From the NCBI GenBank assembly GCA_001724265.1, contig MEDY01000007.1:1-64000 (forward strand): a stretch of DNA of 64,000 bases. The letters run 5' to 3'. The stretch is from Rhizaria sp. SCN 62-66 (lineage: Eukaryota). The notes below the pieces were generated by a model. That model saw nothing but the letters and a program-made list of their open reading frames with translations. It was not told the origin of the DNA and searched no databases. The translations under genes were made by a program, and so were the position numbers. Positions 12,801 through 52,670 of the stretch are shown in pieces (within the stretch, counting starts at the first letter, position 1; the number at the start of each line of letters is the position of its first letter).

Positions 12801-15800
12801 TTAATTCGCGGTCGCTACAACACTGCTGCTGCTATCGTTGTTGTTGTTGGCCTCACCCTGGTCCTCGAAGCAGCGCGGGTCGATGGTGACGGACTTAGTG
12901 ATGTTGTGCGTCTTGTAGATGCCCACGAGCCGGTCCGCGAGCTCGAACATGTTGTTGCGGAGCGAGATGATGATGAACTGCGCGTTCTTGGTGCGCTCTT
13001 TAATGTAGTTGGCGACGATCGAGACGTTCTTGAAGTCGAGCGCGGCGTCGATCTCGTCCATGACGTAGAGCGGCGTCGGCTTGTAGTGGTGCAGCGCGAA
13101 CACCAGCGCCAGCGACGACAGCGTCTTCTCGCCGCCGGAGAGGTTCTGGATCGCCTTCCATGACTTGTTAAGCGGGCGCACCGAGAAGACGATGCCCTCG
13201 GCGAAGGGGTCGAGCGTGTCCTGCAGCTCCAGCTCGGCGTCGCCGCCCATCGTGAGCATCTGGTACATCTCCTTGAGCTTGAGCGAGATGACCTTGAAGC
13301 CCGTCATGAACTGCGTGAAGCGCTGCATGCGCAAGGCCTCGAACTGCGCCTTTGCGGAGTCGCGCGACATCGTCGTCGCCTGCAGCATCGTTGACAACAC
13401 CAGGAAGTCCTTCTGCTGCCGCTTATACTCGCCGACGACGTCGCCGCCCAGCGCCGCGCGCTTCGCAGCCACGCGCTTCTCGTCGGCCTGGATGCGCGCG
13501 TCGAGCGCGGCCACGTCCACGCGCTCGAGCATGTCGCTGCTAGGGCACTCGAAGTCGGCGGGGCGCTCCACGGCCGGCAGCTGCAGGTCGGCCTCGCGCG
13601 CGCGCGCCTCGTCGGCCTTAATGCTTTCCTCGTCCTCGTCCATGTCGATCTGGCCCGACATGAGGTCCTCGGCCAGCGCCAGCGCCTCGTTGGCCGCGCG
13701 CTCCTGCGCCGAGAGCACGGCGTCCTTCTTGCCGCCCGCGCCCGCGCGCTTGCCGCGGCGCGCGCCCACGGCGGGCTCGTCGTCGCCGTTGAGCTGCGCG
13801 CGCGCGAGGATCTCCTCCTTGTTCTTCTGCGCCGCGGCGAACATGGCGCGGCGCTCGTTCATCTCGAGTACGCGCGCCTCTTGCCACACCTCGACGGACG
13901 TCACGCGGGTGCGCGCGTCCGCAACCTTGTCCGCCAGCGCCGACACCTTGCCAGAGAACTCCTCCAGCTTGGCCGTCCAGTGCTCGAGCTCCTTGAGGAC
14001 CTCGGCCAGCGACGCGCGCGACTCTGCCAGCTTGTCCACCAGGTCGGCCTCGATGCTGCGCAGCCGCTCGGTGCGCTCGCGTACGTCCTGCATCGCGGCT
14101 TCAGCGGCCTCGATCGCGTTCGCAAGCTCGGTCATCTCGCGCTTGATCTCAGTCGACTCGGACAGCAGGCGCAGCGCCTCTTGCTCGACCTACGTCGACA
14201 CAAAACAAAACAAGAAACAAGATTTGAGGCAAAGAAGGCAAGTTGTGAGTGAAATAATAAAGAGTAATGAAATTACGACTTATTAAAAGCCACGAAAAAA
14301 TATTTTAGGTTCCACAATTACGAAGTAATCATGTGACAGATAAAGCATTGCGCCATGAAGCGACTTGACGTACCTCTGCGAGCCTGGTCTTGGCGGCGAC
14401 ACCCTCCTGCTTGTGCTTGTCCGCGTCCGCGCGGTGGTCGAGCAGCTCCTGCTCCAGCTTCTGCTTGCGCGCGGGAAACGACTCCATGACGGCCTGCCAG
14501 CGCGAGAGCTCGCTGTTGAGCTCGGCGATGTGTTTCTCCATCTCCGTCTTGGTCTTGTTCATCGCCTGCAGCCGGTCGCCGCCGCCCTCGAGGATCTTGC
14601 GCTTGAGGCGCTCGATCTCGGCGCGCTTGGGCTCGCCGTCGCGCGTCGCCTGCGCGTATGCATCCTCGGCCACCTTGCGCTCCGCCGCGAGCTCCTTGAG
14701 CAGCGCGTCCTCGCGCGCCTCGTCGTCGAGTCCGTCCGTCGCCGCGGCGGCGCCGGACTCGCTTTTGACGCGGATGCGCTGCGCGGCCTTCTCGGCGACG
14801 GCGTCGATGCGCCCGCGCAGCTCGACCACGCGCTCCTTGTTGTAGGCGAGTTGGTCTTGCTTCATGCTGACGGCCTCGCGCACGGTCGAGAGCGAGCGCG
14901 CGAGTTGGCGCAGCTGCTCGGGCAGGCTGGCGCGCTCCTGCTCGACGCGGGCCAGCGCGGCCTCGGCCTCACGCAGCTCCGCCTCGGCGCGCTTCACCAT
15001 CTCGTCCGTCACGGCCGTCGCGTCGCCGTCCTGGTCCGCCGCCGCCGCCGCCGCGCGCGCGCGGCCGCCCGCCGAGGCGAGCTTCATGGCGCCGCGGAAG
15101 ACCTGTGAGCCGCCGCCGGAGATGGCGCCCGTGGTCTCGATGAGCTCACCCGCGAGCGTGACGACGCGGTGGCGCGCGGAGCCGGCGGGGGAGAAGGCGA
15201 CGCGGCGCGCTGTCTCCAGGTCCTCGACCACGAGCGTGTCGCGCACGACCGAGTAGAAGGCGGCCGCAAACCGCGGCTCGCGGATGGCGAGCAGGTCGAA
15301 GAGGCGCTTCGAGCCCTCGGGCGCCGTGAAGGGCGCCTGCATCATCTGCTGCGCGCGACTTTGCTGGTCCAGGCAGATGAAGGTGCTGCGCCCGGCGTTG
15401 TTGCGCTTGAGCACGTCGACGGCCACGCGCGCAGTGCGCGACGTGTCGACGAGGAAGTTGCGCAGCGCGCCGCAGGCCGTGGAGATGGCCACGTCGTACA
15501 TGGGGTCGATCGTGCCCAGATCGCCCAGCACGCCGTACAGGTTCGTCAGGTCGCTGTTGCCTCGCTTCTGCGCCATGAGGAAGTCGGCGATGCGCCCGCG
15601 GTTGGCGTTAGATTCGAGGCGCCGCTCGCGCAGCTCCACGACGGCCGAGTGCGCCGCGTTGCGCGCCGCCTCGAGCGCTTGCCGCCGCGCCGCGTTCTCG
15701 CCGATGGAGCCCTGCAGCGTGGCCTTACGCGCGTCCATGTCGGCAACCTCGCGCTCGGCGCGCGCGATGTCGGCCTGCAGTTGCGCCACGGCTGCCTCGG

Positions 15801-17424
15801 CCTCGCGCAGCTCGCTGCCCAGCTTGTCGTGCGCGGCCTTGCGCTTGGCGCGCACGTCGGTGATGGTCTTGACTCGGCCGTCGATGACGGCGATCTTGGC
15901 CTTGGCTTCGTTGGCGCGCGTGGTGAACTCGCGCATCTCGGCCTGCACAGCCTCCATCTGCGTCTTGAACCCCGCCGACCGTTCCTTGACAACCTTGAAC
16001 AGCTCCTCCGTCTCGGTCACGATCTTCTCCTGCTCGGCCTGTTTCTTGGCAATCTCGGCCTTGCGCGGCTCAACCTGCTGCGCCATCGCCGCGCTCTCCT
16101 CCTCGGCCTTAGCCAGCAGCTCCTGCGCCTTGGCCAGCTGCGCCTCGGCCTTGCCGTGATCGTCGCGCGCCTTGGCGATGCGGGTGCGCAGCACCACGTC
16201 CTCGTGCTCGCTCTTGTTGAAGAGCTCCTTCATCTGCTTCAGCTGCGCGTTGCGCTCCTGGTGCGACGCCTTCATCTCGTCGATCTCGGCCTTCTTGGCC
16301 TCCATCTCCTTGAACGTGTCCTGCGCGCGCTCGCGGTGTTCCGCCAGCACGGCCTCAGTCGCCTCGATCTGTTGCCGCTCCCGCGCCGCGCGCGCGTCCG
16401 AGTTGTGCTTGTTCACGGCCACGCGCGTGGCCAGGCACGTGTGCAACGAGTGGTCCAGCTCCAGCGCCTCGATGGCCTCGTCGCGCGCCGTCGCCACGGC
16501 CGCGAGCTCCTTCTCGGCCATCTTAAACTTGCGCATGCGCGCCGCGCGGTGCTCGTTGAGGCGCGCGAGGCGCTGCTCGGCGACCTCGATCGCGGGCGCC
16601 AGCTGGTTGCTGCCGATGATCTCCTCCAGATACTCGAGCAGGCCCTGGTCAGTCACGTGGCCCTGCGCGTTGCGCACTGCCTTGGGCTTCATCATCGAGA
16701 TCTGCTCGACCTCGCCCTGTAGGATCAGGAAGCGGTTGTTTTTGAGGTCAATGCCGTACGACATGAGCTTCTCTTCGACCACGGACATCGGCACGTTGCG
16801 GTCGTCGATCGCGTACGTCGACTGCGAGTTGATGTCGGCCGTACGCGTGATCGTGAACTCGGAGCCCGGCACGACATCGTAGCCGTCGTCCGAGTTGGCG
16901 TGGTCCGTGATGAGCGCAAAATGGACGCAGACGGAGCACCTCTGCACGTTGGGCAGGTCGCGCGAGTTGTGGATCAGCTCAGCGATGTTCTTCAGACGGA
17001 TTTGGTTCGCGCGCTTGCCGAAGACAAAGAGCATCGCATCGATGACGTTCGACTTGCCGCTAAAAGGGTGCAAAAAACCAGAGGAGAGGAGAGAAAAAAG
17101 GATCGATATGCGCAACACGTGAGAAGTGATCAAAATAATGTTCGTGAGTGGGTGCGCAAGTAAGACAAGAGTATGTTCGATCACTTCGAGACGCAGTTGT
17201 GTGGTGGCGGCGATGAGAACGTACGAGCCGTTGGGTCCGACAACAGCGGAGAAGCACTTGTGAAAGGGGCCAATCTCACGGATGCCACCGTAAGACTTGA
17301 AGTTCTCCATGACCATCTTCATGATCATGAGACGCGGCTTTGGGCCGGCGGCGACAACGGCAGCGCTGCCACTGTCGGCGCCAGCGCCAGCTGCGGGCGC
17401 AGAGCCTGAAACAGCACTCTGCAT
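12801..17424 (-). CDS. SMC4: Condensin subunit SMC4, 3 exons (about 1424 aa)
   Basis: Exons 17424-17225, 17059-14374 and 14189-12801. ENFKSYGG, spliced Walker A GPNGSGKSN, hinge (YGVLGDLGTID..YDVAISTAC, GAISGGG), signature LSGGEKTLSSLAL, Walker B MDEIDAALD, QFIIISLR. Confidence 0.95.
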
Positions 17425-17986
17425 CTAAACATGTACAAAATCAACAGTAAAAAAGTGGTTATGTGTGATATGAGTGATGAGAAAGAGCTGGAACAAACGA
17501 AAGGGAAAAAGTAGCGGGCAGCTAGCCGTTGGAGTCGGGTGCTCGACAGTTTGCTAGAGTTGAAGGTATAAAACGCAAAATCTCCGAAAGCCGAAAATAC
17601 ACAATAAAGACCAAAGCAGCGAAATTCTAAGAGAAAGATACATATTCCGTGTTGACGACGGATAGTTTGTGTTTTTCCAGTTTTTCGGTCACAGATTCAA
17701 AACAGAGTGGCGGCCGGTCTGGCGGGCGCCCACGGTCACTGGTCAACCTCGATTTTATTCGATATGCGTCTGGAAAACACTATTGATGTGCTCAGATTGA
17801 CATATAATTACAGTATCATCAGAAAATCTATTTTTTTCATTTGGTTCTGGAGCAATATATATACTTGACGATCAGAGTGCCTCACATGATAATCGTTTTT
17901 CCCGTTTTCGAAGAGTTTTCTCGTCTTGCGTCAGCGAGAGATCCCTTCCAATCGTCCTCCAAGTGAGGTTTTCCTCTTTGTTCCCG

Positions 17987-20900
17987 ATGCGTACTTTCCA
18001 CGCTCGCTTGCTTGCCGTGCTTTTGGCGCTTGTCTGCGCTCTGTTTGCGACCCTCGCGCCCGTTTCCGCGTTCGTGCAGCCGGACCCGAAGGCGAACCAG
18101 CAGAGCGCAGCGGTAGTCGAGCAGCAGCTCGAGCGCTGGTTCAAGTCGCTCCACAACGACAAAGCCGAGGCCGTCTGCGACCACGTGCTGTCACTTATTG
18201 AACTCTTCTCTACGGGCCGCTCCTGGGACGCCCACTCGGCCTCAGTGCTGGCGGACGTGGTTGGGACCATCTTCGCCGAGCCGCGCTTCGTCATCAGCCC
18301 CGCCTGGCCATGCGCGGAGAAGCTCATCAAGGCCTCCCCGAGCCTTATGGCGCTCTTCACCGTCGCCACACAGACGGCCGCGGTGGTGTTTCCGCGCGAC
18401 GCGGCCCGCAATGCGCGCGCCGTGTACGACGCGCTCCCGCTTGACGCGCAGGCCAGCCCCGTGGTGCGCGACGCGTTCCGCCGCCTGCGCCCCGCGGCCG
18501 TGCGCATGCGCGCAGACATGACGCTTAATCTGCCGCTGCGGTCCTCCGAGCTGGCATGCGACGCCGTCGTTGCGCTCGCCGACGCCGCCGTGCGGCCATG
18601 GCGCATGCGCTTCAAGCAGCGGCTGCAGCGCGCTGTCGACGCCGGCGCCCCCAGTCTCGAGCCCGACTCGGCAACGTCGCCGCGGGACCTGGCCGTTGTG
18701 CACAGCAGCATGGTCAAGGTGATGATCCTCGCGCACCCACAGGGGCGCTCCTCAGTTGTCGGCTTTACCGAGGAGGAGCTCAGCAACGAGCTCCCGCTGC
18801 TGTACAATTACTGGTACGCGGCGCTCGCGATCTCGGCTAAGACCAACCTGGCCTCGGAGCGCGGGCTGGCTGTGCTCGAGGGCCACAGCCTGGCGTTTCC
18901 CAAGTACCACATCTTCAACGAATTTCTGTCCTCGGTCAACTTCGCGGTGTCGTACATCAACGTCGCCACGGACGTGCACCTCAAGTCACACATCAACAGC
19001 GTGCTCCAGTCCTTCCTTGTCAACCCCAACGCGGAGTTTTCCTCCGCTCGCTTCCTGGCTTCGCCGCACATGCTGCCCGCGCCGCACTCGCTGGGCCGCG
19101 CCCCGCCCGCGCGCGTCCTGTCAGGCCGCGGTGTCAAGATCGCCGTCATCACGCAGTTCTGGCTGCGCTTCCACTCCATCTACCGCACCTTCGTCCGCTT
19201 CGCGCGCGCGCTCGCCCGCTCCGGCTTCGCGCTGCACCTGGTTATGCTGGGCGCGGCCGAGGACGAGGTGGGTCTGGAGCCTGGGCTGTTCGCGAACGTG
19301 AACTACTACCCCGAGCAGAATGACATCGACCGCGCAAGGCTCATCGAGAAGCTCTGTCTGACGGAGAAGTTCGACGCTATTTACTACCCCGACGTGGGCA
19401 TGTCGTTTGCGTCTATCCTGCTGTCGAACATGCGCCTTGCGCCCGTGCAGTTCACCACGCAGGGCCACTCGGTCTCCACCTTCGGCTCGCAGATCGACTA
19501 CTACCTGTCGGGCGACGAGACGGAGCGCGCCGACCTGGAGCTCGTGGCCGGCGACTTCTCCGAGCGCGTGGTGCTCGTGCCGGGTCTCAGCGTCGTGTCT
19601 GAGATCCCGCTCGCGCTCGGCACACCATACTGGCGCCTCTACCACAACCTGCCCAAGGAGACCACCAAGAGCGACAACCAGAGTAACGGCGGCAGCGACA
19701 ACAGCGCGCAGCAGCAACCGCAGCAGCCGGAGCAGCACGCACCGTCAACTGAAGACAAGGTTGTCCCCACGACTGACAGCAACGGCGACAGTAAAGACCG
19801 TGCCGGCGCTAGCGCGAGCGCGAGTGCGCAGAGCGTGCTTGGTCTGAGCCGCGGTGGGCAGTACGTGGTCGGCGACGAGACGACCGAGTCCTTCGTGGCC
19901 TGCGCTGAGTGGGCGTGGGACGTTGAGGGTCTCTTTAACCACAAACACTTGATCATCGCGCTGAACCACGCGCCGTTCAAGGTCAACGCGCCGTACCTAA
20001 CTGCTCTCGCGCGCGGCCTGGTGCAAGTCCAGGGCCGCGGCTTCGAGCTGCGCATGTTCCCGCACCTCAACGCGCTGCTCGAGAAGGGCGCGTTCGAGCT
20101 CAACGTCTATCATACGCTGCGCGACGCCTACGTCACGGCCGGCGTCGCCACCGGCCGCGCGCCCCCGCTGCCCGAGGGCCCGCTGAGCGACCGGTATCTG
20201 GAGCACTACAGCGCCGAGGAGCGCGCGCAGGCCGCAGCGAGCGTCGTGGCGCGCCTTACCGAGGTGTACAAGCGCGAGCGCTCGCTTGACAAGGCGTCCA
20301 ACGTCGACCCCTACCACTGGCTGCGCACCGACGTCAGCTTCACTGGCGGCGCCCCCGTGGCCGACGCTGCAAAGATGACGATCGACCTGTCCACGCTCGA
20401 GGGCCTGTGGGCGCTGCGCTTTGCGCTGCACGTGCACGTCGTGGTCTACAACGGACTCAAGTATGCACAGTACATCACGACGCTGGCGTCCAACGTCTAC
20501 TCCGCGCAGGAGCGCAACGGCTGCACCGGGACGTTCGCGGTCGAGGCCTTCCCCTTCGGCGGCTGCAACACAGTCAACGACGCGCTGTGGGCAGGCGTGC
20601 CCGTCATCACGCACCGCGGCACGCGCTTTAACGCACGCGTGGGCTCGGCGACGCTGGCGCGCGTGTCGCCCGCGCTGGGCCGGCTGCTGCTAACGACGAC
20701 CGCGCCGGAGCTGTCCCGCGCCGTGGCCGCGATGGCCGGCGACGACGAGTTCCGTGCGCGCGTGGCCGTCATGATGCGCGCGGCGTCGCTGGCGCCCGTC
20801 TTCGGCGAGGACGTCTCGCCCCTCATGCAGCGCTGGGCCGCGGGGCTCAGCTCCATGTCCATGTTCCGCTCCGGCGTTGCCGCGAACAAGTTGGCCACGG

Positions 20901-22633
20901 CCAAGCCAGAGCACAGCCGCATGTGGGACGAGCTCTACGACCACGACGGCGGCAGCAACGACAGCTACGACGGCGACAGCGACAGCGATGATGATCGTCG
21001 CAGTCAGCGCAGCGGCGGCAGGCACGGCGCTGCCGCGGTGCAGTACTGGCGACGCGCGCCCGAGGACGTGCGTCGCTGCAGTGCGGCCGACGCCGAGGTG
21101 ATGAAGGCGCTGGGCCCCACGGGGCGCCCCTACACGCCCACGCGTCCCGGCGACGATTACACTGGCGCTGACGCTGATGCTGACGCTGACCCTGACTGCG
21201 GCTCTGACTCCGAGACTGAGTATGATGATGCTCGTGCTGAGTTTGACGAGATCGAGGACCAGATCACCGAGGAGGTCGAGGTCGACGAGCCCGTCGTCGA
21301 CTCCGCTGCCACGGCCAAGGCGGCCGCAACTGAGGCCACGAAGGCCAAGGCCAAGGCCAAGTCTGCCGCTGCGAAGAAGCAGTGTAAGGCGACCAAGGCA
21401 GCCTCCGTCGCGGCTGCGAAGGCCAAGGTCGAGGCCGCCAAGGCCCGTGCGAGCGCCAGCAAGGCCAAGCAGGACGACGGCCGTGGCGCTGTGAACGCGG
21501 CCTTCAGCTTCGACATCGACGGCGACGATGCGGACGACGACGGCAGCAACGACACCGCTGACGCTAACGCTGAAGTTGCTGCGGCTGAGTCTGATCTCGC
21601 CAACGCAGTCAGTGTAAACTGCGACTCGAGCAACGGTGCCGATACTGTCACTGGTGAGGATGAGAGTGCACAGGAGAGCCGTGAGGAGCTTGACAGTAAC
21701 CGCAAGTTCGCTGCGATCGACCTCGACGGCGACGTCGACGACGCGCTCGCACCCGAAATCAAGCCGCCCGCGTCGGCGACCTTCCGCCGCGTCAAGCGCA
21801 CCGTCACACGCACTGTCACGCGCCGCGTCCCCAAGCAGCGCTCCAAGGTCAGCAGCAAGTTGTGCAGGCGCACCGCCAGCCGTAGCGCGCCGGTGGCGCC
21901 GCTGGGCCTGCAGCCAGTGGCCTGGCGCTGGACGCCCGCGCAGACGGCCGCGGCGCTCTCGGCGTGGGACTGCGCGCGCCCGCTGCTGACCGCGACTGAC
22001 CTCGCCCGCGACCGCGAGGCCGCCGCGGCGGGCGCGTCCGGCGCGGCCGCGCGGCGCGCGGCGGCGCTGGTGTCGGAGCCGCTGCTGAGCGAGGAGAGCT
22101 ACATGGCACGCGCGGTGGACCTGCTGCTGCGAAACCACGCGCTGCTGACCGCTGAGCGTGACGAGAGCGTGAGGACGCGCAGGGCGCTGCCGCCCGCCGT
22201 GGACCTGGCCGAGCTGCTGCTGGGCCGCAGCGCCGCCAGCCAGGCCGCCCAGTTCGCGCGCGACAACGGCAGCCAGGACAGGGGCCCGCTGGACCAGCTC
22301 GAGCTGGGGTACGACAGCGACGTCGACGACTACGGCGAGAGCCAGCAGTGGGGCGAGATGATGCTGCGGGAGACGCGCGCGCTCTACAAGAAGACTGTGG
22401 GGCAGGCCACAGTCGGCGCCGCGATCGCGAACGCTGCTGCTCCTGCGGCTGGTGCCGGCAGCAGTGCGGGCTCGACCAGTCACAGCAGGCGCAGCGGCAG
22501 CAGCAACGGCGACACAAAGACTCACAGTGATGGCGACGACGACGGCGATTTCTTCGACACCACTGCCACGGTGACTGTTGGTGCGACTAGGACGCGTGGC
22601 GCTGACAGCGACAAGATGAGGGACGAGCTTTGA
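17987..22633 (+). CDS. GT41-family glycosyltransferase resembling HMW1C/NGT, with signal peptide and C-terminal RDEL; intronless
   Basis: N-terminus MRTFHARLLAVLLALVCALFATLAPVSA; motifs HSIYRT (19172-19189), YYPDVGM..SILLSNMRLAPVQ..GHSVST..IDYY, PFKVN, FPFGGCNTVNDALWAGVPVIT; ends KMRDEL*. Confidence 0.8.
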   Translation: MRTFHARLLAVLLALVCALFATLAPVSAFVQPDPKANQQSAAVVEQQLERWFKSLHNDKAEAVCDHVLSLIELFSTGRSWDAHSASVLADVVGTIFAEPRFVISPAWPCAEKLIKASPSLMALFTVATQTAAVVFPRDAARNARAVYDALPLDAQASPVVRDAFRRLRPAAVRMRADMTLNLPLRSSELACDAVVALADAAVRPWRMRFKQRLQRAVDAGAPSLEPDSATSPRDLAVVHSSMVKVMILAHPQGRSSVVGFTEEELSNELPLLYNYWYAALAISAKTNLASERGLAVLEGHSLAFPKYHIFNEFLSSVNFAVSYINVATDVHLKSHINSVLQSFLVNPNAEFSSARFLASPHMLPAPHSLGRAPPARVLSGRGVKIAVITQFWLRFHSIYRTFVRFARALARSGFALHLVMLGAAEDEVGLEPGLFANVNYYPEQNDIDRARLIEKLCLTEKFDAIYYPDVGMSFASILLSNMRLAPVQFTTQGHSVSTFGSQIDYYLSGDETERADLELVAGDFSERVVLVPGLSVVSEIPLALGTPYWRLYHNLPKETTKSDNQSNGGSDNSAQQQPQQPEQHAPSTEDKVVPTTDSNGDSKDRAGASASASAQSVLGLSRGGQYVVGDETTESFVACAEWAWDVEGLFNHKHLIIALNHAPFKVNAPYLTALARGLVQVQGRGFELRMFPHLNALLEKGAFELNVYHTLRDAYVTAGVATGRAPPLPEGPLSDRYLEHYSAEERAQAAASVVARLTEVYKRERSLDKASNVDPYHWLRTDVSFTGGAPVADAAKMTIDLSTLEGLWALRFALHVHVVVYNGLKYAQYITTLASNVYSAQERNGCTGTFAVEAFPFGGCNTVNDALWAGVPVITHRGTRFNARVGSATLARVSPALGRLLLTTTAPELSRAVAAMAGDDEFRARVAVMMRAASLAPVFGEDVSPLMQRWAAGLSSMSMFRSGVAANKLATAKPEHSRMWDELYDHDGGSNDSYDGDSDSDDDRRSQRSGGRHGAAAVQYWRRAPEDVRRCSAADAEVMKALGPTGRPYTPTRPGDDYTGADADADADPDCGSDSETEYDDARAEFDEIEDQITEEVEVDEPVVDSAATAKAAATEATKAKAKAKSAAAKKQCKATKAASVAAAKAKVEAAKARASASKAKQDDGRGAVNAAFSFDIDGDDADDDGSNDTADANAEVAAAESDLANAVSVNCDSSNGADTVTGEDESAQESREELDSNRKFAAIDLDGDVDDALAPEIKPPASATFRRVKRTVTRTVTRRVPKQRSKVSSKLCRRTASRSAPVAPLGLQPVAWRWTPAQTAAALSAWDCARPLLTATDLARDREAAAAGASGAAARRAAALVSEPLLSEESYMARAVDLLLRNHALLTAERDESVRTRRALPPAVDLAELLLGRSAASQAAQFARDNGSQDRGPLDQLELGYDSDVDDYGESQQWGEMMLRETRALYKKTVGQATVGAAIANAAAPAAGAGSSAGSTSHSRRSGSSNGDTKTHSDGDDDGDFFDTTATVTVGATRTRGADSDKMRDEL

Positions 22634-23705
22634 GGACTTCAGTGAGCCTTTTGCGTTTAACGCCTCAACCAGTGACAATCTTATGTTGTTGTTCCATCAG
22701 TCATATTCAGCGTGCTGATTGCGCGCTTTTTACACTAGAAAACATTATTTCATATTAGGTAGAGTATTATAGGAACTATATACTGGCTGCTGACACAGCG
22801 CTTACTATATTGTATATTATAAGTTTATTTTAACGTTTTTATGTCTGTTCTGTTTGTCTTTCATGTCACGGCGTGTTCTTCCTTCGTGGTCGCCGGGGTT
22901 GAAGTTGCGACACAGCTGCGTTTCCTTGCGACTTCGTCATGCGTAGTCTCGACATCAGCGGCCAAATCACTGCTGTTACATAACCATATGTCACTAGCAT
23001 CCAAAATATATGTAGCTGTCATGTATATACACAACAATCCGTGTTAAGTAACTTCTCAGTCAACACAAAAAATTGGAGTAGGGATAAGTTCACATGCGAT
23101 TATAAACTTGCCATGGTAAAAGAAGTTTGTTATTGTATTACAAATTATAGCGAGTCAGTTTACTCTTATCTTATACATTGTTGCCACGCCACATTCGTCC
23201 GCAGCAGTGCGGGACAGAGAGCGGACGACAGAGCCGCAGAGCGAGAACGGGTGATAATAGAACTTTCCCGCCCCGAACTGCAACCGCCGCCGCCGCTTTG
23301 CACTCACACAGATACACACCGGCGCCGCGCACACGCTAGTGCGCGACGGGGGGAGGCTGCGGGCTGCAGCGCAGTCGCTGTAGAGATTTTGAGAGCGCGC
23401 CAGCTCACAGTCAACGCGCGCCACGCCGCGGGTGTTCTTGGGATTAAGGTAGGAAACACCGCGGCGCGACGCGCGCGTTTGCCGCCGTCACACCTCGCCG
23501 ACGCACGGCTCGGCTACGGCAGCCACACCATCACACTCACACACAGGCACACGCATTGGGATGCGAGCGCGTACGTGCGAGATCAATCTGTAAAGGTCGA
23601 TCGTGTCATCGCTGTCTCGGCGCGCGCTCTGTGATGAGAGATGCGGAGATGACGAGGGCTCTCTCTGGCTGTCATGAGTGAAGTGAAGATAAGAAGCTTA
23701 CTTAC

Positions 23706-24212
23706 TTACGCGGAGACCTCGAGGATGGCGTCAACGACGTTGCCCTTCTCGCGGAGAGCCTTGATGGCCTTGTTGCGGGAGCAGTTGCCCTGGGACATGA
23801 CGGTCTCGATCTCGTCGGCCTCGAGGCCGGTCTCGTCCGCGGGGGCGGCGTCCTCCTCCTCCTCGGCGTCAGCGGAGGCGGCAGCGGGGACGTTGGCGAA
23901 GGAGCCGGCCTGCTGGCGGAGAGCGGAGGCGAAGTCCTCGGTCTTGGCCTCGCCGAAGACGACGTAGGTGTTGGTGCCGGGGGCACGGAAAACCTCGGGC
24001 TCGTTGATGGCGAACACGACGTTCTTGGCGCGCTTGAGGGTGACACGGGTGACGTTCGGGACGGTAGTGAGGCCGGCCTTGACGAGGGCCTTGCGGGCCT
24101 TGCGCTCGGTCTTGGAGAGCTTGCGGCCCGAGGCGTCGGTCTCGAGATCCGGGGTCTCGTCGTCGGAGATGTCCTCGAAGTTAGCGTTGTTGGCCTCCTC
24201 AATGGCAGACAT
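23706..24212 (-). CDS. NACA: Nascent polypeptide-associated complex subunit alpha
   Basis: SKTERKARKAL..GLT.VPNVTRVT, NVVFAINEPEVF, TYVVFGEAK; C-terminal UBA-like DETGLEADEIETVMSQGNCSRNKAIKAL. Start ATG at 24212. Confidence 0.95.
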   Translation of the reverse strand: MSAIEEANNANFEDISDDETPDLETDASGRKLSKTERKARKALVKAGLTTVPNVTRVTLKRAKNVVFAINEPEVFRAPGTNTYVVFGEAKTEDFASALRQQAGSFANVPAAASADAEEEEDAAPADETGLEADEIETVMSQGNCSRNKAIKALREKGNVVDAILEVSA

Positions 24213-25062
24213 TGTCGATAAACTGACTATAGAGCAACAAAAGTGAAAACATGGGAGATCAGGACGCGAAATACAGGTACAAAAGAGTGAGAAGGCGTCA
24301 ACGGAGACGAACAGTGGGACAGCAAGGCGCAAGCACAAAATCACCGCCGGTGTACGGAACAGACACGTCTACACTCTGTCTTATCAACACATAAGGTGTC
24401 TAAGAGTGACTTGTATATTATACTGCAATTACGAAATTAGAGGCGACGCTTAAGACCCGCCAAGACCGCGGGAAGAGATCCGCTCGCGCGGACTGGGCCG
24501 CACTCTCGATCCCGCCAGACAAAGTTAAGCCGCTCCCACAGTCACGACCACCAGTCAACCTGACGCTGACTCAAAAGAGAAATCTAATAATGCGTGCAGC
24601 GCATCAGGATGCTATTTAAGAGAGATAATATTTGCATATTGTATAGGACAACCAGTTTTAGAGCAATTGGTTGTATTTTATCACGTTTTTTGTTGAACTA
24701 TACAGCTGTGTCGTCGTCTGCACAAAGCGAGCCTGAGACAAAGGTTGAACACCGAATACGAAAAATGAAAAAATATTAAAAATTGATTGACCGAATTGAG
24801 ATTACATGACTTATGAGTTACGAGTAAAAAAACGGGGACAGATGACACACAACAAAAACACAACTTAAAAGTCATAGACCCCCATTTTCATGGAGATCTA
24901 CGCACACATATACAACGTTGCAGCAGAACTTAACTACTGCTGACAGAGAGGAGCAAACTCAAGAAAATATCACACAAACAAAAACGATTACAAACGACAA
25001 GACATACCATAACTTCAGATAGCGTCAGAACTGCAGCACCTTGACGCTTACACGAGCAGCAC

Positions 25063-35895: not shown

Positions 35896-36496
35896 GCTTG
35901 GCGCGGAAACAGCAGAGAGTGCCCAGACGCGTTAAGGGTACGTTTTGAGGCAGATTTGGTTGTGTAGGAGAAGAGCGGATGCTTCGTTGGGGCAGTGTTG
36001 AGACGTTGGTGACCGGAAAGAAAGTGAGGTGAGGGAAGTGTGGTCTTTGCTGATGAGGCAATTCTGATAGTGCCACACGAGCGCCAGTACAGTTTTGGAG
36101 CAAAGATCAATTCCAAATCCATAAAGAAAACAAGTTGAATAGGCGGAAAAAAGTGATGACATTTTCATTGACGGATATCTGACGTCGCACAAAGCTGAAA
36201 CTAAAATTGACCGTTGGCTCGGTTGAACCGACTTTTTGCGAACCCTCCTCGCCAGTCTGCGATGACCGACAGTCAGAAACGTAACCGCCTTCCTCTATTT
36301 TTGGTTGTAGCTCCTTCTAAACTCCGTTATTCGATATGTTGCTTCATTTACTGATCCAAAAAGAACTGTTTTATAACATAACTCTTTTAGTCATTCCTAT
36401 GTTATTTCTGGCAATCTATACGCGCCCTCAATGTATCGTGCTCCTCTCCTCTGTATCGTTCCTAATTTCTCACAGCCACTGAGCCGTTCCAGCCCG

Positions 36497-39400
36497 ATGG
36501 ACGGCAGTGACGCTTACGCAGACGCGGGCCCGACTGAGCCCGGCATGCCTGCCGGCATTACCTCGGTCCAAATCTCCGCCAAGCTCTCTTGCGCCCACCT
36601 GCCTTTCCCCGCGTCGGCTGCTACTGCGTCCGGGGCCCCGCTCGTCACCATCGCTGTTTGCCTCACCGAGGAGGCCGACAGCAAAGAGCTCGCCATCGCG
36701 GCCACTACGGAGCCTTTTGACCGCTCACAGGTCATTGCCTTGTCGGCTAAGACCGCGCCCGTCCCCGCGGGGAAGACTGTGGACGCCGCCGCGCTGGACC
36801 GCAACCCGCCCTTCACGTCCCCGTTGTCGCTCATGTACTACCAGCCCCTGGACGACCGCGCGCTGTCCCCCGAGGAGGAGGCCTTCCTGACGCACCGCAA
36901 CACGGTCGTGCTGCGCATCTACCACCTGCCCGACATCGACCTGAGCGACGAGTCGGCCTCAGTGACGCTGCAGGACGAGCACATCATCGGCGCCGCCATC
37001 ATCGACCTGGCGACCGTGCTCGAGTCGGCCGCCGGCAGCGACTTCGCCGACCCGGTGCCCGTGCCGCTGTTCCTCTCCGTGCCTAGCGAGACGCCCGGCG
37101 GCGCCGCGCCCGACGCGCCTCCGCACGGTGTCACCGCGAAGCCTCTCGTGGAGGCGGCGACGCAGCAGCGCGCAACCGCAAGCCTCGTGTTCAAGGTCGA
37201 CGGAACCGCGTTTGAGCAGGACGAGCTCCCGCCCGGCACTGTGCTGCCGCTCAAGGACGAGAACGAGGCCCAGCACGAGGCGCAGCCCGAGGCACAGCCG
37301 GAGGCCCAGCATGAAGATGCGCAGCCCGAGGTTAAGCCTGAGCCTGAGGCCGCGCCTGCTGCTGCTGCTGCTGCTGCCGCTGCTGCCGTTGCCGCGCCCG
37401 CAGCGCCGAGCAAACCGGCCCCCGCGAAGCCTGCGCCGACCAAGGCGGCTCCCACCAAGGCCGCGCCCGCGCGGCCGCCCCCCGCGGCCGCTGCCGCCGT
37501 CGCGGTCGCAGAGGCTGCGACCGCTGCTGCAGAGTCCGCTGCTGCTGCCGCTGCTGTTGTGGAGCCCGCAGCAACGCTGGCTGAGCACGCGAGCGAGCAC
37601 GAGGCCAAGGGTGAGGCCAATACCGAGAACAATAACAGCGAGAAGCACAATGACAGTCACAAGACAGAGCCCGCTGCAGCCGAGCCCGCAGCAGCTGCTG
37701 CTGTTGCTGATTCAACACATGAGCACCACGATACTCATGAGCAGCCCAAGACGGACACTGTGGGCGCGTTTATGGCGAGCGCAGAGCCTGTTGAGGACCA
37801 CCGTGACAAGAGCGCCCACGACCACGGTGGCCACAAGGCGAAGGACGAGGTCAAGGACGAGAGCGCCGGCGCCAAGGACGCTCCTGCTGCTGCCACACAC
37901 TACAATGCCCACGACAACGCGCCGCTCCCGGCCCCGTCGCCAGTTAACGCGCCCGCCGCGGACGAGAAGGCCGCCGCCACCGCGCCGAGCAGTCCGGCCT
38001 CCGCCAAGGCCGACGCCGCCGGCGCCGCCGCGCCCGCCACGCCTCCCCCGCGCCAGCCCTCCGCGGCCCCCTCCAACGCCAGCGCTAATGTACACGCGAG
38101 CGCTGGCGCTGGTGTCGGCGCTGGTGCCGGCGCCGGTGCGAGCCGCAGCGTTGCGGGCAGCACGCCCGCGTCGGCCGCCGCGTCCCCGGCGCAGTCGCAG
38201 CGCCGTGCACTCGCCCCTTCGGCCTCGACGGCCTCGACCAACAACAACAACAACCCTGCTGCTAGCGCCGGCTCGCCTCCGCCCGCGAGCAACAACGGCG
38301 GCGGCAACGCCGCGAAGCCGCCGCGCGCGCCCGCCAACAGCGGCACGCCCCAGCCCTCAAACGCCAACACCAATGCTACCGCGAGTGCGGAGAGCGTTGG
38401 CAGCCCGAACAAGTCGCGGCGCGCGTCGATGACGGCGGCCCCCATGCCCGTGCCCGCGTCCCCGGCGCCCTCGCACGGGAGCGTCGCGGGCAAGGCCACG
38501 CCCAAGGCGCCCGCCCAGCCGCAGAGCCAGCCGCAGGGCCAGCAGCAGCCCGGACTGACGAGCTCAGCCTCGACTAGCCGGCTCACACCAGCACCGTCGG
38601 CCAGCGCCGTTGCGAATGCCAGCGCCGACGGCGGCGCCGGCACGGGCCGCCGCGGCTCCGCTGCGCTGCCGACCCCCGGCAGCAGTGCGAGCGCCGCGGC
38701 GGCGGCCCCCGCCCGGAGCCGCCCGCCGTCTGCGCGCCCGGTATCCGCGCAGCGCTACTCTGCGGGCAGCGGCGGCGCGCACGGGGCCGGGACGCCGCAG
38801 CCGCACGGCAAGGGCCCCGCGCGGCCCGGGAGCCGGCTTGCGATGCAGGGCGCGCACAGCAGCAGCCAGCAGCAGCTGCTCACGCCCCAGCAGCAGCAAC
38901 TGCACGACGATGCCGCGAGCAGCAGCAGTGACACGCCCGCGAGCCCCGGCATGCGGCCCGTGGCGCAGCCGCAGCAGACAGCGAGCTACGGCCGCGCGTC
39001 GTCGCCGTCGCCGCTGACCGAGTCCAACGTGTGGCGCGAGAAGGTGACGGTGCTCATGACGCAGAAGGTCGAGCTTGAGCGCACGCTCGACGACACCAAG
39101 TCGCTTCTTCAGGCCAAGACTGACGCCGCGCACGACACCGAGAACGCGCTTGCCGCCGCGCGCGCGGAGCTGGCCGCGATGCACGCGCAGCTCGAGATGA
39201 CGCGTGCGGAGCGCGACGACTGCCACCGGGAGCTCTCGGAGGCCCGCCAGACCATTCGCCACCTGCAGTCGCGCGACGCGCAGCTGACCGAGACGACCGA
39301 GGCCGCCGTGCGCAACGCCGACATCGCCGAGTCATCTTCGGCGACGTCCTCGCGCCAGCTCTACCTTATGCATCGTCTGGCGCGCCACCTGACCACGGTG

Positions 39401-40978
39401 GCCTTCGTCAAGATGTTTTCCGCTAAGCGCGCGCTGCTGCGCCTCATGTGCGGACTCTACTCGCGCGCCCAGTTCCTGCTCTCTGAGGTCACAGCGGACC
39501 CCGCCCCGCCGGAGCTGACGTCTTCGCTGCTGTCGGTCGCCGCGCGCTCGGCGGCGTCGCCCGCGCTGCCGGACCTGTACGAGCTGCTCAGCGACGAGGT
39601 CCGCGCCCCCGAGAGTCTCATGCATTGGGACCGGGCCGACTCGCGCGCGACCGGCACGCGCACCTCGAGCGCCAACCCGCACTCGCGCGCGCACGCCGCC
39701 TCAGCCGGCGCGGGCACGCAGTCCAACAGCTCCACCACCGCTGTCTCCGGCGCTGGCGCGGGCGGCGTGTTGTCCCCGGACCAGTTCAAATTCCGTCTCG
39801 CGTCGGTGCCCATGGACGCGCTGCTGGCCACCGTGGAGACGCTGAGCGAGGCGCTGGGCGAAGCCGTGGACGCGACGGTGCTGCAGAAGAGGCACTGGTA
39901 CCGCGCCACGCACGCCTTCTCGCAGCGCTCCGTGGAGCTGGCGGGCACGGCCAAGAACGCGCTGCTGATGCAGCACCTCCACGCCGCAGGGACGGGCCCC
40001 GCGGGCGGGCAGTCGGCGCTCTCGGCCGCGCCCGGCGCCGCGGCCGCCGCGGCTGCAGCGGCGGAGAACGAGGCGCGCGAGCGCGAGCAGGCGCAGCAGC
40101 AACAGCAGAGCCAGCTGCGCGCGGCCGCTGCGGCCGCCGAGCGCGACCGCGCGACGATCGCTACGCTCGAGGAGCGGCTTGAGCACAAGAAGCTGCAGAC
40201 GCAGGCCTACCAGCGGCAGTACCGCGTCGCGCAGGACCTGCTGACGGCGTCGGCGGCGCGCGCGACAGACCTGGCCGGGTACGTCGACACGCTGCAGCGC
40301 TGCTACGTGCGCACCGTGAGCACGCTGGGCGGTGCGACGGCGCTGGGCGAGTTCCCGCTCCCGCCGCCGCCGCTCACGCCTGTGGTCGACTCGACGCAGA
40401 TGGGCAGCGGCAGCCCGGCGCTGGGGATGACGAGCGGCAGCATGGGGCCGCGCCAGCAGGAGGGCGGCGCGGTGCCCAGCACGCTGCCCCCCATCCGCAA
40501 CGGCGGCGGCCCGCAGCAGCAGTACCAGCAGCAGCCCCCCGCGGTGGGCTACGCGGGCGGCTCGCCCGACCTGTACTCGAGCATGAGCGCGTCGCAGCGC
40601 GGCGAGCAGTGGCGCACGCCGCGCGAGACGACGCTGCAGCGGCAGGGCGCGAGCGACCGCCACGCCGCCTACGGCGACGCCGCGGTTGCGCAGCACGGCG
40701 GCAGCGGCAGGCAGCCGCAGCAGCAGGGCGGGGGCAAGGCCGCGCAGGTCGAGCGCGACTACGGCGGCGACTGCAGCGGGCCGCAGCAGCAGCATCCGCA
40801 GCAGCAGCAGGGCCAGGGCCAGCGCGTGCGCGTGCGCGCCAAGGGCGTGCAGCCCGCGGCCCAGCAGGGGCGGAGCCCGCAGCAGGGCCAGGGTCAGCCG
40901 TCGGCGGCCAAGATGGCCCACCTGGCCCGTCTTAGCACCTTCCTGGCCACTCAGGAACGCAGCCTATTCTCGAAGTGA
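36497..40978 (+). CDS. Large protein with an N-terminal divergent copine-like C2 domain, Ala/Pro/Ser low-complexity middle and coiled coils
   Basis: SVQISAKLSCAHLP..RNPPFTSPLSLMYY..LRIYH..EHIIGAAIIDLATVL follows the copine C2A pattern; heptad-like region near 39030-39330. ATG 36497 chosen because it follows CTAAT..CACAG (36462-36475). Confidence 0.7.
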   Translation: MDGSDAYADAGPTEPGMPAGITSVQISAKLSCAHLPFPASAATASGAPLVTIAVCLTEEADSKELAIAATTEPFDRSQVIALSAKTAPVPAGKTVDAAALDRNPPFTSPLSLMYYQPLDDRALSPEEEAFLTHRNTVVLRIYHLPDIDLSDESASVTLQDEHIIGAAIIDLATVLESAAGSDFADPVPVPLFLSVPSETPGGAAPDAPPHGVTAKPLVEAATQQRATASLVFKVDGTAFEQDELPPGTVLPLKDENEAQHEAQPEAQPEAQHEDAQPEVKPEPEAAPAAAAAAAAAAVAAPAAPSKPAPAKPAPTKAAPTKAAPARPPPAAAAAVAVAEAATAAAESAAAAAAVVEPAATLAEHASEHEAKGEANTENNNSEKHNDSHKTEPAAAEPAAAAAVADSTHEHHDTHEQPKTDTVGAFMASAEPVEDHRDKSAHDHGGHKAKDEVKDESAGAKDAPAAATHYNAHDNAPLPAPSPVNAPAADEKAAATAPSSPASAKADAAGAAAPATPPPRQPSAAPSNASANVHASAGAGVGAGAGAGASRSVAGSTPASAAASPAQSQRRALAPSASTASTNNNNNPAASAGSPPPASNNGGGNAAKPPRAPANSGTPQPSNANTNATASAESVGSPNKSRRASMTAAPMPVPASPAPSHGSVAGKATPKAPAQPQSQPQGQQQPGLTSSASTSRLTPAPSASAVANASADGGAGTGRRGSAALPTPGSSASAAAAAPARSRPPSARPVSAQRYSAGSGGAHGAGTPQPHGKGPARPGSRLAMQGAHSSSQQQLLTPQQQQLHDDAASSSSDTPASPGMRPVAQPQQTASYGRASSPSPLTESNVWREKVTVLMTQKVELERTLDDTKSLLQAKTDAAHDTENALAAARAELAAMHAQLEMTRAERDDCHRELSEARQTIRHLQSRDAQLTETTEAAVRNADIAESSSATSSRQLYLMHRLARHLTTVAFVKMFSAKRALLRLMCGLYSRAQFLLSEVTADPAPPELTSSLLSVAARSAASPALPDLYELLSDEVRAPESLMHWDRADSRATGTRTSSANPHSRAHAASAGAGTQSNSSTTAVSGAGAGGVLSPDQFKFRLASVPMDALLATVETLSEALGEAVDATVLQKRHWYRATHAFSQRSVELAGTAKNALLMQHLHAAGTGPAGGQSALSAAPGAAAAAAAAAENEAREREQAQQQQQSQLRAAAAAAERDRATIATLEERLEHKKLQTQAYQRQYRVAQDLLTASAARATDLAGYVDTLQRCYVRTVSTLGGATALGEFPLPPPPLTPVVDSTQMGSGSPALGMTSGSMGPRQQEGGAVPSTLPPIRNGGGPQQQYQQQPPAVGYAGGSPDLYSSMSASQRGEQWRTPRETTLQRQGASDRHAAYGDAAVAQHGGSGRQPQQQGGGKAAQVERDYGGDCSGPQQQHPQQQQGQGQRVRVRAKGVQPAAQQGRSPQQGQGQPSAAKMAHLARLSTFLATQERSLFSK

Positions 40979-44800: not shown

Positions 44801-46194
44801 GAAGCACGACGACCGCAGCATGCTGCAGCAGACGTCGCCGACGCTTGACGTTGACGACCTCTTTGGCAAGGATGTTGACTACACAGGTAGGTCTTACGTA
44901 GCAACGGATACTCTTTACATTGTTGCCGAACTTAACATAAATTCATTCTCTCTCATCTATTGATAGTTGCCCGTGCTTATTTTCTACACGCTCCCGTTGT
45001 TTAATTAATTAACTTCTGTTTTACATTTCAGGCTGCTGGCTAGAACTGCATTTGCACGTCGGTGGTGGTGGTGGTCACAGTGCCTGCGTGTCGCACGCGA
45101 GCATCTCTGTCACGCGCTCCCTGGCCCCGCTCTCGACGGCGCAGCTTGCGACCGTGGGCGCCCTGGGCGACGCCGCGTTGGCCGCGACTACGCGCGATGT
45201 CGTCAAGTTGACCAAGCAGACTGGCAAGACGGTAAATAAAAACGGATCGATGAATTCCATCGTCACGATGATCACCGAGGAAACTCGCGATTGCGTGACT
45301 GGCGAGCTCACGATCGCCTATCGTTCGGATGTCGAAACAGCAGCTATCGATGCTCCCAGCACGCCCGCTGTCACGGTGCCTGATAAAATGGTGCTGGTGA
45401 CGAAGCCGCTGCCGCAGCTCTCGCATGTGCTTCCGCGTGAGAGTGTTGAGCGCTTTGGGCACTATGTCTTTTTGACCGAGAAGGTTACGGCAACTCAAGA
45501 GCGTGCAAGCGCCATTACGGCGCTGGCTAAGCGCGCACAGCAGCGGTACTTGCGCAACACCGGTGTCCCTTCAAGTAGCACCAGAGGCGATAGTAGCGGT
45601 GACAGCAGTATTGGTACCATCGAGGTTTATGTCGGAACTGAGCGTTTGCTTTGCCACGCCACTGCGCTGCGTATGCTCACAGTTTCACGCGCTTACGTCA
45701 CAGAAGCAAGCAAATCTGGTTCTCGCTTCTCCCCCTCAGCGCATCTCAAGGAGATGAGGCACGCACTCAAGTTGGTGGAAACGAGCGTCGTCGCACATGC
45801 CCTGCGGACACATCCCCTCGGGAAGCATTTCATCGGGACAGGCGCCGCCGTGGGGGCGCAAGCTGGTGGCCACGGCGAGGACGACGAGATGTTTGCGCAG
45901 CTGCGTCGCCTCAGCGCACTGCAGTTAGTGCCTGACACGGGCCTCGGATACCTGTTCGGGCTCGACGCCGCGAGCCTGGCCGAAAGCGACCTCGCGACGC
46001 TGGCGCTCACTGCCGCGCCGCCGTGCCTGCGCCTGCCGCTGGGAGAGGCGTCCGTGGCGCACTGGCTCTGGGCCTCCACAGTCATGCCAAAGGCGGAGGA
46101 GGTGGCCGTGGACGATAGGCGGGACGTGGTCACGGCGCGGGCGCTGGAGATGATTGCGGCGGCGGCGGGATCGGCGGGGCGGACCAAGTGGTAA
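41853..46194 (+). CDS. Uncharacterised protein with two copies of an F-box-like + DQGWG/GGGGGH module; in-frame TAG at codon 36 (possible pseudogene)
   Basis: Exons 41853-44886 and 45032-46194 (GTAGGT...TTCAG). Repeat 1: HIARLPLY..LPFEAKMCIAEYLP..LTDPLLPGER..GCWWELW. Repeat 2: HVARLPLY..VPAAAMLQIAAYIP..VTDPFLRGER..WNDQGWG..GCWLELHLHVGGGGGH. TAG at 41958-41960. Confidence 0.7.

Positions 46195-52637: not shown

Positions 52638-52670
<33 letters not shown>

Follow-up and report, generated by a model that had tools for sequence, protein, structure and literature searches.

The 64,000-nucleotide stretch of DNA analyzed here (the window; positions 1 to 64,000 of contig MEDY01000007.1 from Rhizaria sp. 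SCN 62-66) carries an open reading frame (ORF) whose product, labelled P0001, is probably a glycosyltransferase of family GT41 that resembles the bacterial N-glycosyltransferases (NGTs), would reside in the lumen of the endoplasmic reticulum (ER) and would transfer a single sugar to luminal or secretory proteins. This reading is carried by a modelled fold and a donor site of the HMW1C/NGT type, together with a signal-peptide-like N-terminus and a C-terminal RDEL that have counterparts in relatives; from these we infer that P0001 resides in the ER lumen, is catalytically active and uses proteins as acceptors. Relatives are denoted by P numbers, and those taken from genomic loci by L numbers.

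Fold and family membership

The structure of residues 1-960 was modelled with AlphaFold2 from an alignment of 144 relatives (A1), resulting in a predicted template modelling score (pTM) of 0.78 and a mean predicted local distance difference test score (pLDDT) of 74.8, with pLDDT >= 70 at 608 of the 960 positions. Foldseek retrieved 66 PDB matches at E <= 0.001, and among the matches listed all belong to GT41. NGT chains occupy the ten best places (ApNGT 8j30, 3q3e, 3q3h and 3q3i; AaNGT 8p0o and 8p0q; E 2e-19 to 7e-16), and template modelling (TM) scores normalized to the target reach 0.74-0.80 for NGTs, 0.60-0.69 for XcOGT, ~0.44-0.53 for human OGT and 0.38-0.51 for SPY. As the NGT scores span whole chains, the all-alpha domain at the N-terminus (AAD) superposes as well as the GT-B part. 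A preliminary description of the ORF had proposed comparing such a model with ApNGT, OGT and SPY; the comparison returned a GT-B fold of family GT41, with NGTs as the best matches.

Sequence and profile comparisons point the same way. PDB sequences matched by P0001 are NGT chains over residues 378-511 (E 5e-10 to 4e-8) and XcOGT over residues 852-950 (E 1.5e-3). An NGT reference set was drawn from 401 gammaproteobacterial genomes, 9 of which matched at E <= 1e-30, and seven proteins were aligned (A4), including L041, a true NGTferase member and the only one above the cut-off of that family (1217.7 bits). Eleven signal-peptide-type members of the P0001 family (A3) align with these NGTs by hhalign at a probability of 100% (E 3.8e-58) over 574 columns, which begin at column 10 of the NGT template and extend through the AAD as far as the last helix. 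Protein-language-model neighbours of P0001 are bacterial HMW1C_N/HMw1_D2/GT41 clusters (score 0.96, 217 of 256 features). Several relatives pass the 25-bit cut-off of the GT41 family PF13844, namely P0012 (26.4 bits), P0010 (40.7), P0005-P0007 (77-80) and L001 (51.6). In one neighbour cluster of 129 members, PF13844 is found in 88%; 67% of its taxon-recorded members are viral, mostly Nucleocytoviricota, and giant viruses seem to hold GT41 proteins of ~630 residues.

The motifs reported earlier for this ORF are all present: HSIYRT (396-401), SYINV..HLKSHIN, GM..SNMRLAPVQ..GH (480-494)..T, FKVN (K665) and FPFGGCN (N861). Likewise, the absence of a tetratricopeptide repeat (TPR) array was borne out, with no TPR family found in Pfam and an N-terminal domain that superposes on the NGT AAD. 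Fold and sequence comparisons thus describe P0001 as a predicted TPR-less GT41 of HMW1C/NGT architecture, with a GT-B of two Rossmann-like lobes, whose modelled strands and helices lie at residues 384-545 and 655-940; modelled fold, catalytic residues and PF13844-passing relatives place it in GT41 in the broad sense. P0001 is not an NGT orthologue, failing on score, clade and compartment. The label "HMW1C/NGT-like GT41" of the preliminary description accordingly stands for fold, profile and donor-site residues and falls for orthology, given 52 bits against a cut-off of 1000 and a position outside the NGT clade. Within the AAD, cysteines C64 and C109 are common to P0001 and its closest relative, P0002; one precedes a DxV/I motif and the other lies in CAEKLIKAS, and other members lack them. 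They might form a disulfide in the lumen.

Targeting signals at both termini

The hydrophobic segment at residues 8-26 has a Kyte-Doolittle hydropathy over 19 residues (KD19) of 2.69, as compared with 1.72 for the next-highest 19-mer of P0001, and small residues at -3 and -1 fit signal cleavage. Should this segment be a signal peptide, its removal would leave a soluble mature protein, because there is no other strongly hydrophobic segment. The signal-peptide-like N-terminus and the terminal RDEL of the preliminary description are both confirmed, the former also through the equivalent segment of P0002 and the latter at residues 1545-1548.

Recurrence of the two signals was analyzed in the 150 best relatives (P0001, P0002 and P0005-P0152). 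A C-terminal [DEQTS]EL (xEL) is found in 8 of the 150, compared with 0.24 expected from composition: three RDEL, two KDEL and one each of KQEL, KTEL and ESEL. The PROSITE ER_TARGET pattern, which we take to be [KRHQSA][DENQ]EL, fits the RDEL of P0001 and six of the eight xEL proteins. A hydrophobic N-terminus occurs in 10 of the 150, and both signals occur together in six. The closest relative, P0002 (1502 residues), has a signal-like start and an RDEL end, and BLASTP aligns it to P0001 at 32% identity over residues 17-550 and 47% over residues 812-940. P0012 combines a signal peptide and KDEL in a compact protein of 657 residues. Putative secretory and ER signals hence recur in relatives at 25-35% identity, which answers the question, raised in the preliminary description, whether homologs share them. 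The Phe after the presumed cleavage site prompted consideration of a heterokont plastid signal (motif ASAFAP). This candidate was rejected, as acidic residues and a conserved domain follow directly, P0002 lacks the Phe and P0001 ends in RDEL.

Conservation of the donor site

AaNGT residues contacting UDP, sugar and peptide are named in the accessible part of PMC10507012. These were mapped onto P0001 through the hidden Markov model (HMM) of the family; residue numbers of L041 run parallel to those of AaNGT, shifted by 17, wherever they were checked. Nine of the 15 nucleotide-sugar contacts are identical: AaNGT H276, S277 and R280 correspond to H396, S397 and R400 of P0001, G369 and H370 to G493 and H494, K440 to K665, Y500 to Y829, N520 to N861 and D524 to D865. 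Among 173 family rows, K665 is conserved in 172, H494 in 168, G493 and D865 in 167 each, N861 in 162, R400 in 126 (with Lys in a further 36) and H396 in 122. K440 and H276, the catalytic Lys and His of AaNGT, thus have counterparts in P0001, and H276 is equated with ApNGT H277 and hOGT H558 in the available part of PMC11329713. Mutations or structures have shown the importance of His, Lys, Asn and Asp for NGT and HmwC, according to the portions of PMC10507012 and PMC11329713 that were available. Judged by this conservation, the catalytic apparatus of the family is subject to selection and is retained in P0001.

Relatives and phylogeny

Residues 1-960 were searched with phmmer against 1.84 billion representatives, yielding 3355 matches at E <= 1e-3, 492 at E <= 1e-10 and 27 at E <= 1e-30. 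Word-index homolog searches are nearly blind for this family (4 matches in one; 6 matches, mostly TPR-type GT41, in another). Relatives of ~600 residues without signals are bacterial (E 1e-36 to 1e-21, 33-46% identity over the matched stretches). In a collection of prokaryote genomes only, 37 of 43 pattern matches encode relatives, distributed over Cyanobacteriota, Planctomycetota, Pseudomonadota, Parachlamydiaceae, Actinomycetota, Vulcanimicrobiota, Nitrospiraceae and one archaeal bin. Eukaryote-sourced relatives are P0143 from Cyanophora paradoxa and P0026 and P0023 from EukProt transcriptomes; P0078 falls in a cluster whose name comes from a Parachlamydiaceae bacterium.

Catalytic domains were cut with the family HMM and analyzed with FastTree (193 rows) and a mixture-model IQ-TREE "quick" search (70 chosen rows). 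Left out were fragments (P0013, P0078, P0131, L007, L033, L035), duplicates and cluster members (P0011, P0033, P0153-P0159, P0165-P0170, L039, L040) and many-domain proteins (P0140, P0144, P0161, P0162). NGT rows form one clade (98* in FastTree, 97* in IQ-TREE) with P0001 outside, in a separate family (97* in FastTree; Shimodaira-Hasegawa-like approximate likelihood ratio test (SH-aLRT) 92, not starred, in IQ-TREE). The two trees further agree that P0001 and P0002 pair (100* and 99*), within a group of seven that also comprises P0008, P0034, P0009, P0012 and P0114 (support 90, not starred), that a branch with support 90 has all 20 named bacterial rows on the same side, and that eukaryote-type rows make up a basal grade or polytomy next to the bacterial clade. 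None of the 20 bacterial rows groups with P0001, and the eukaryote-type rows are nested in no bacterial phylum. In both trees P0001 also stands apart from the TPR-type GT41 rows. The phylogenetic check suggested earlier therefore finds P0001 not among TPR-type GT41, within a tree whose TPR-type rows are bacterial, eukaryotic OGT and SPY having entered through the structure search.

Monophyly of the eight xEL rows, a group named after the tree had been seen, costs 16.8 log-likelihood units and is not rejected (approximately unbiased test, p-AU 0.249), so that a single origin of the ER-retained form is allowed. Long eukaryotic branches could be drawn artificially towards the outgroup. As reconstructed from these sequences, the trees give no donor lineage, and horizontal transfer or its direction is neither shown nor excluded. 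The horizontal acquisition envisaged in the preliminary description is not supported as written, considering the basal grade of eukaryote-type rows, the lack of nesting within bacteria and a codon usage correlation of r 0.97 with the neighbouring genes.

Several features of the relatives were recorded in passing. The Parachlamydiaceae member L003/P0169 (618 residues), from a metagenome-assembled genome (MAG) of this chlamydial lineage associated with amoebae, differs from the other bacterial members in having a hydrophobic, signal-like N-terminus. Some relatives (P0005, P0006, P0007) carry two to three whole catalytic domains in tandem, and some TPR-type GT41 proteins (P0015, P0050, P0140, P0144) three to six copies in up to 3732 residues. 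Genes next to the bacterial loci L004 and L010 have housekeeping roles without relation to the family (DNA polymerase A, nuclease, histidine kinase, thymidine kinase, GST); no adhesin or two-partner secretion gene is among them, and they offer no clue to function.

Gene structure, inserts and genomic setting

P0001 is encoded by a single open frame (17963-22633, plus strand) whose first ATG at 17987 yields 1548 residues and a stop; features are listed in Table 1. An intronless ORF of about this length had been described before, and one frame indeed covers 17987-22633. Residues 1-960 are encoded with a GC content at third codon positions (GC3) of 0.88 and residues 961-1548 with one of 0.83; the corresponding second-position values (GC2) are 0.46 and 0.55, and the flanking intergenic DNA has a GC of 0.42 and 0.50. 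From these differences it follows that the low-complexity C-terminal 40% is coding in the same frame and that RDEL is part of the same protein.

Table 1 Features of the P0001 coding frame and its upstream spacer, in window coordinates
Feature (residues of P0001)	Position	Strand	Basis or remarks
AT-richer spacer (GC 0.42), presumed promoter and 5' untranslated region	17425-17986	.	Common with divergent SMC4 gene; exact RNA-library contig 17723-17949
Whole coding frame (P0001)	17987-22633	+	1548 residues and stop; GC3 0.86; relative synonymous codon usage (RSCU) r 0.97 with neighbouring genes
Signal-peptide-like N-terminus (1-28)	17987-18070	+	Two Arg, hydrophobic 8-26, PVSA then F; P0002 equivalent
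Predicted N-terminal all-alpha domain (~34-345), counterpart of NGT AAD; W276, N311-E312	18086-19021	+	Helices only in model; Foldseek; hhalign
Predicted N-terminal Rossmann lobe of GT-B (384-545); HSIYRT (H396, S397, R400), GH (G493, H494)	19136-19621	+	Model, NGT matches, residue mapping
Disordered Ser/Gln/Asp-rich insert between lobes (551-651)	19637-19939	+	pLDDT < 50 at 558-651; absent from homologs; net charge -9
Predicted C-terminal Rossmann lobe (655-945); K665 (FKVN), Y829, N861, D865 (FPFGGCNTVND); two disordered loops	19949-20821	+	PDB match, alignment, model, mapping
Ala/Asp-rich low-complexity stretch, ~420 residues (946-1364)	20822-22078	+	21% Ala, 12% Asp, charge -17; P0002 the only homolog with it; GC3 0.83
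Conserved C-terminal family helix (1365-1398)	22079-22180	+	Tail HMM built from 134 homologs, 14.5 bits, i-E 7.8e-4
Gly/Asp/Ser-rich tail (1399-1544)	22181-22618	+	Composition
C-terminal RDEL (1545-1548)	22619-22630	+	7 further relatives end in RDEL, KDEL, KQEL, KTEL or ESEL

On comparison with homologs, both of the long, acidic inserts of low complexity are lineage-specific additions common only to P0002. Homologs end in a conserved helix ~25-45 residues past the C-terminal lobe, for which the tail HMM points to residues 1365-1398; of 500 shuffles of residues 946-1548, 165 produced a hit at all, the best of them at 2.2 bits. In P0002 the tail HMM scores only 2.5 bits (1423-1446), and BLASTP pairs P0001 1365-1415 with P0002 1423-1472 at E 0.26. 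We tentatively read residues 946-1364 as an insert of ~420 residues that precedes the actual last helix, of which a remnant may persist at 955.

On one side of the ORF, and divergent from it, lies an SMC4 gene on the minus strand, present as ORFs 12801-14135 and 14329-17424; on the other side, a NAC-domain gene on the minus strand (23706-24344) converges with it. Elsewhere the window contains genes for SelO, LMBR1 and a WSD-motif protein. With this gene content the window is eukaryotic nuclear DNA. RSCU of the catalytic part of P0001 correlates with that of the pooled neighbours at r 0.97 (0.84-0.96 for the neighbours among themselves), and the codon usage of the ORF is native to the host genome. 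The best match of the SMC4 neighbour has 64% identity; named matches are mostly stramenopiles (diatoms, oomycetes), and also include Mortierellomycota, Capsaspora and Thecamonas. The split of SMC4 into two ORFs and an in-frame, non-SMC-looking stretch near the N-terminus of 14329-17424 both look like introns, so that the genome is intron-poor yet not intron-free. Two further long ORFs on the plus strand, 36431-40978 (1515 residues) and 42039-44963 (974 residues), have no Pfam match at E <= 1e-5. GC3 is 0.69 for 42039-44963 and 0.62 for 46482-54650, below the other genes of the window.

RNA cover was taken from X1, a poly-A metatranscriptome run of an environmental metagenome study that is kept as contigs, which lack ends and strand and where DNA carry-over is possible. 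X1 contigs with 0-1 differences to the window lie at six places: 17723-17949, 19049-19619, 20311-20547, 20757-21051, 21356-21546 and 22687-22895. This cover is weakly compatible with an unspliced transcript reaching past both ORF ends. No splice joint across the ORF was seen in the X1 contigs, a weak negative given that these are contigs only; ORF parts without X1 cover carry no meaning, and run X3 holds almost nothing of the stretch. Contigs of X2, possibly the source sample of the window, tile the ORF and its flanks (17400-17787, 22279-23100) with gaps of at most ~260 bases, and among the X2 pieces listed none spans the whole stretch or either ORF boundary. At 21029-21219, which codes for Asp/Ala repeats, summed contig depth rises to 38 (X1) and 233 (X2), compared with ~1-7 elsewhere, and loose contig ends cluster there; this peak probably stems from contigs of other organisms or from repeats.

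Proposed mechanism and alternative explanations

In the proposed mechanism, P0001 would be a soluble GT41 that combines the AAD as acceptor-binding domain with a metal-independent GT-B. Import would occur co-translationally via the signal peptide, with cleavage near residue 28, and the protein would be held in the ER through KDEL-receptor retrieval of RDEL. UDP-Glc, UDP-GlcNAc and other nucleotide sugars are imported into the ER, and in the lumen the enzyme would transfer a single sugar from such a donor straight onto luminal or secretory proteins, without a lipid-linked donor or oligosaccharyltransferase (OST). The broader idea that several protist lineages possess a second, OST-independent ER route, in which a KDEL-retained GT41 places a single sugar on Asn (or Ser/Thr), is considerably more speculative, and we hold it to be doubtful.

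A number of observations weigh against luminal NGT-like activity. Regarding targeting, the signal peptide was called from hydropathy alone; no signal peptide is evident in P0009 (KDEL) and P0120 (KQEL), whose gene models may lack part of the 5' end; ESEL in P0008 and KTEL in P0034 are non-classical motifs; and P0027, P0143 and P0151 have a signal-like N-terminus without xDEL, so that the family is not uniformly ER-retained. These three relatives would suit an enzyme of the same type that does not reside in the ER lumen, being either secreted or Golgi-localized with an unread RDEL, or cytosolic via a downstream start. Consistent with such a location, an oomycete predicted-secretome table lists GT41 (PMC4316629, in its accessible part). 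An RDEL, KDEL or KQEL end in 6 of 150 relatives, with KTEL or ESEL in two more and 0.24 expected, is nevertheless hard to explain without selection for retrieval, P0002 aligns with the signal region from residue 17 and 17987 is the first ATG of the frame. We therefore regard a location outside the ER lumen as unlikely.

Regarding fold and donor site, P0001 matches no Pfam family at E <= 0.01 and misses PF13844 even at E <= 1, and it matches the NCBIfam profile NGTferase (NF049992) over residues 385-511 only, at E 3.9e-14 and 52.2 bits against a cut-off of 1000 bits. Six of the 15 donor-site positions are changed, with AaNGT T437 replaced by A662, Q468 by L694, H494 by G823, S495 by L824, T519 by C860 and G521 by T862; in AaNGT, two of the six make contact through the backbone. 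The uracil is held there by H494 and S495, both of which are changed in P0001 (to Gly-Leu), and Thr at the T437 position, Ala in P0001, has been linked to donor choice (PMC11329713, accessible part). Owing to these changes the donor may not be UDP-glucose.

The changed positions, the ~40% of P0001 that is low-complexity and acidic and the missing Pfam match would all agree with a dead or repurposed GT41 fold, serving as a luminal binder of sugar nucleotides or glycoproteins or as an acidic scaffold, for example in calcium buffering. Against this, P0001 keeps His, Lys, Asn and Asp, of which the latter three are found in 94-99% of family rows and His in 122 of 173. Furthermore, the changed positions mark a subfamily and not decay, because the whole bacterial family differs there too. 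Such a loss of function appears somewhat less probable still than a different location. The residues specific to base and sugar being a trait of the subfamily, sequence does not identify the donor.

The acceptor side adds a further point of caution. AaNGT R177 and D215 of the AAD read Ser/Thr at sequon position +2 (PMC10507012, accessible part); hhalign sets H214-D215 on N311-E312 of P0001 with an adjacent gap of 4-5 residues and R177 on S283, two residues before K285. P0001 has a [DN]-E pair in common with P0002, P0008, P0009, P0012 and P0034. An HMW1C-like protein with 41% identity to ApNGT, HmwC of Y. pestis, is an O-GlcNAc transferase, as stated in the accessible part of PMC11329713, and the architecture thus does not decide between Asn and Ser/Thr. 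In a rough split, Asn (as in NGTs) and Ser/Thr (as in OGT and HmwC) are equally plausible acceptors, each put forward tentatively, and a non-protein acceptor or an inactive P0001 both seem improbable, to the same degree. The caution of the preliminary description that sugar and acceptor are unreadable from sequence thus holds, the base and sugar positions being changed and the architecture serving Asn or Ser/Thr. Its dolichol- and OST-independent Asn route persists as one possibility, without Asn being fixed: HmwC makes O-GlcNAc (PMC11329713, accessible part), and the AAD sequon residues have no confident alignment.

Two remaining points concern transcription and the C-terminus. RNA support for the gene consists of metatranscriptome contigs in which DNA carry-over is possible, without a silent-stretch control. 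MAFFT places the last helix of the homologs near residue 955 of P0001, a low-confidence helix of the model, and not at 1365-1398.

A bacterial gene, present as a contaminant, through a chimeric metagenome join or after very recent transfer, and therefore not a functional eukaryotic secretory protein, is very improbable. In its favour, bacterial proteins make up most of the relatives, prokaryotes are the source of all 37 confirmed loci (in a prokaryote-only collection) and the window is apparently metagenome-derived. Against it, the ORF lies amid 64 kb of eukaryotic genes to which it corresponds in GC3 and codon usage (r 0.97), has the long low-complexity inserts typical of eukaryotic proteins besides a putative signal peptide and RDEL, has nearest relatives of the signal-peptide/xDEL type with none of 20 named bacterial rows grouping with it, and is tiled together with its flanks by X2 contigs, with gaps of at most ~260 bases and, among the pieces listed, none over an ORF boundary.

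Comparison with known systems

Eukaryotic secretory N-glycosylation is taken to need OST and lipid-linked donors, and to our knowledge the characterized GT41 enzymes (OGT, SPY, bacterial NGTs and OGTs) are all cytoplasmic or nuclear. OGT/SEC and SPINDLY carry TPR arrays and are nucleocytoplasmic; they share the GT-B fold and the catalytic Lys/His logic with P0001 (Foldseek E 1e-14 to 1e-11) and differ from it in these arrays, which P0001 lacks, and in lower TM scores (0.38-0.53). EOGT (GT61), POGLUT1 (GT90), POFUT1 (GT65) and UGGT (GT24) are soluble luminal enzymes with a KDEL-type signal that transfer one sugar from a nucleotide sugar onto proteins. They belong to CAZy families other than GT41 and are not among the Foldseek matches listed.

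If the proposed reading is correct, GT41 chemistry would take place in the ER lumen as a eukaryotic luminal counterpart of bacterial cytoplasmic N-glycosylation, and mono-sugar marks would be expected on protist secretory proteins. Such marks would escape standard glycoproteomics, whose PNGase- and EndoH-based workflows are not aimed at them. Compact luminal enzymes such as the 657-residue P0012 could serve secretory-pathway glyco-engineering. For the Asn-linked glucose of laminin, we know of no enzyme that has been assigned. This linkage has been reported in that eukaryotic protein (PMC2119980, in its accessible part), and a KDEL-retained NGT-like GT41 would be a candidate enzyme type for it. 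Our search of one literature library, judged by titles and the beginnings of abstracts, found neither a luminal GT41 nor a eukaryotic HMW1C homolog described; the nearest precedent is an oomycete table of predicted secreted CAZymes that, in the accessible part of PMC4316629, counts GT41 without comment.

Among bacterial systems, Y. pestis HmwC has an AAD and a GT-B like P0001 and modifies Ser with O-GlcNAc from UDP-GlcNAc (PMC11329713, accessible part); it is bacterial and cytoplasmic, is far closer to NGTs than P0001 is and lies outside the alignments made here. Closest outside the xDEL group is the bacterial family of ~600 residues, some members of which pass PF13844. Domain order and terminal helix are as in P0001, whereas signal peptide (with the exception of the Parachlamydiaceae member), xDEL and inserts are absent; no characterized function was found for this family in our searches. 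The NGTs (ApNGT, AaNGT and H. influenzae HMW1C; NF049992; 3q3e, 8j30, 8p0o) combine an AAD with a GT-B and no TPR, as predicted for P0001, and have HSxYR, GH and the catalytic Lys, Tyr, Asn and Asp in common with it, at 12-13% identity in the structural alignment. They are bacterial and cytoplasmic, whereas P0001 is eukaryotic, with a putative signal peptide, RDEL and ~520 residues of predicted disordered inserts. On support that is computational throughout, the conserved group of GT41 proteins with signal peptide and xDEL is a candidate for an undescribed luminal glycosylation.

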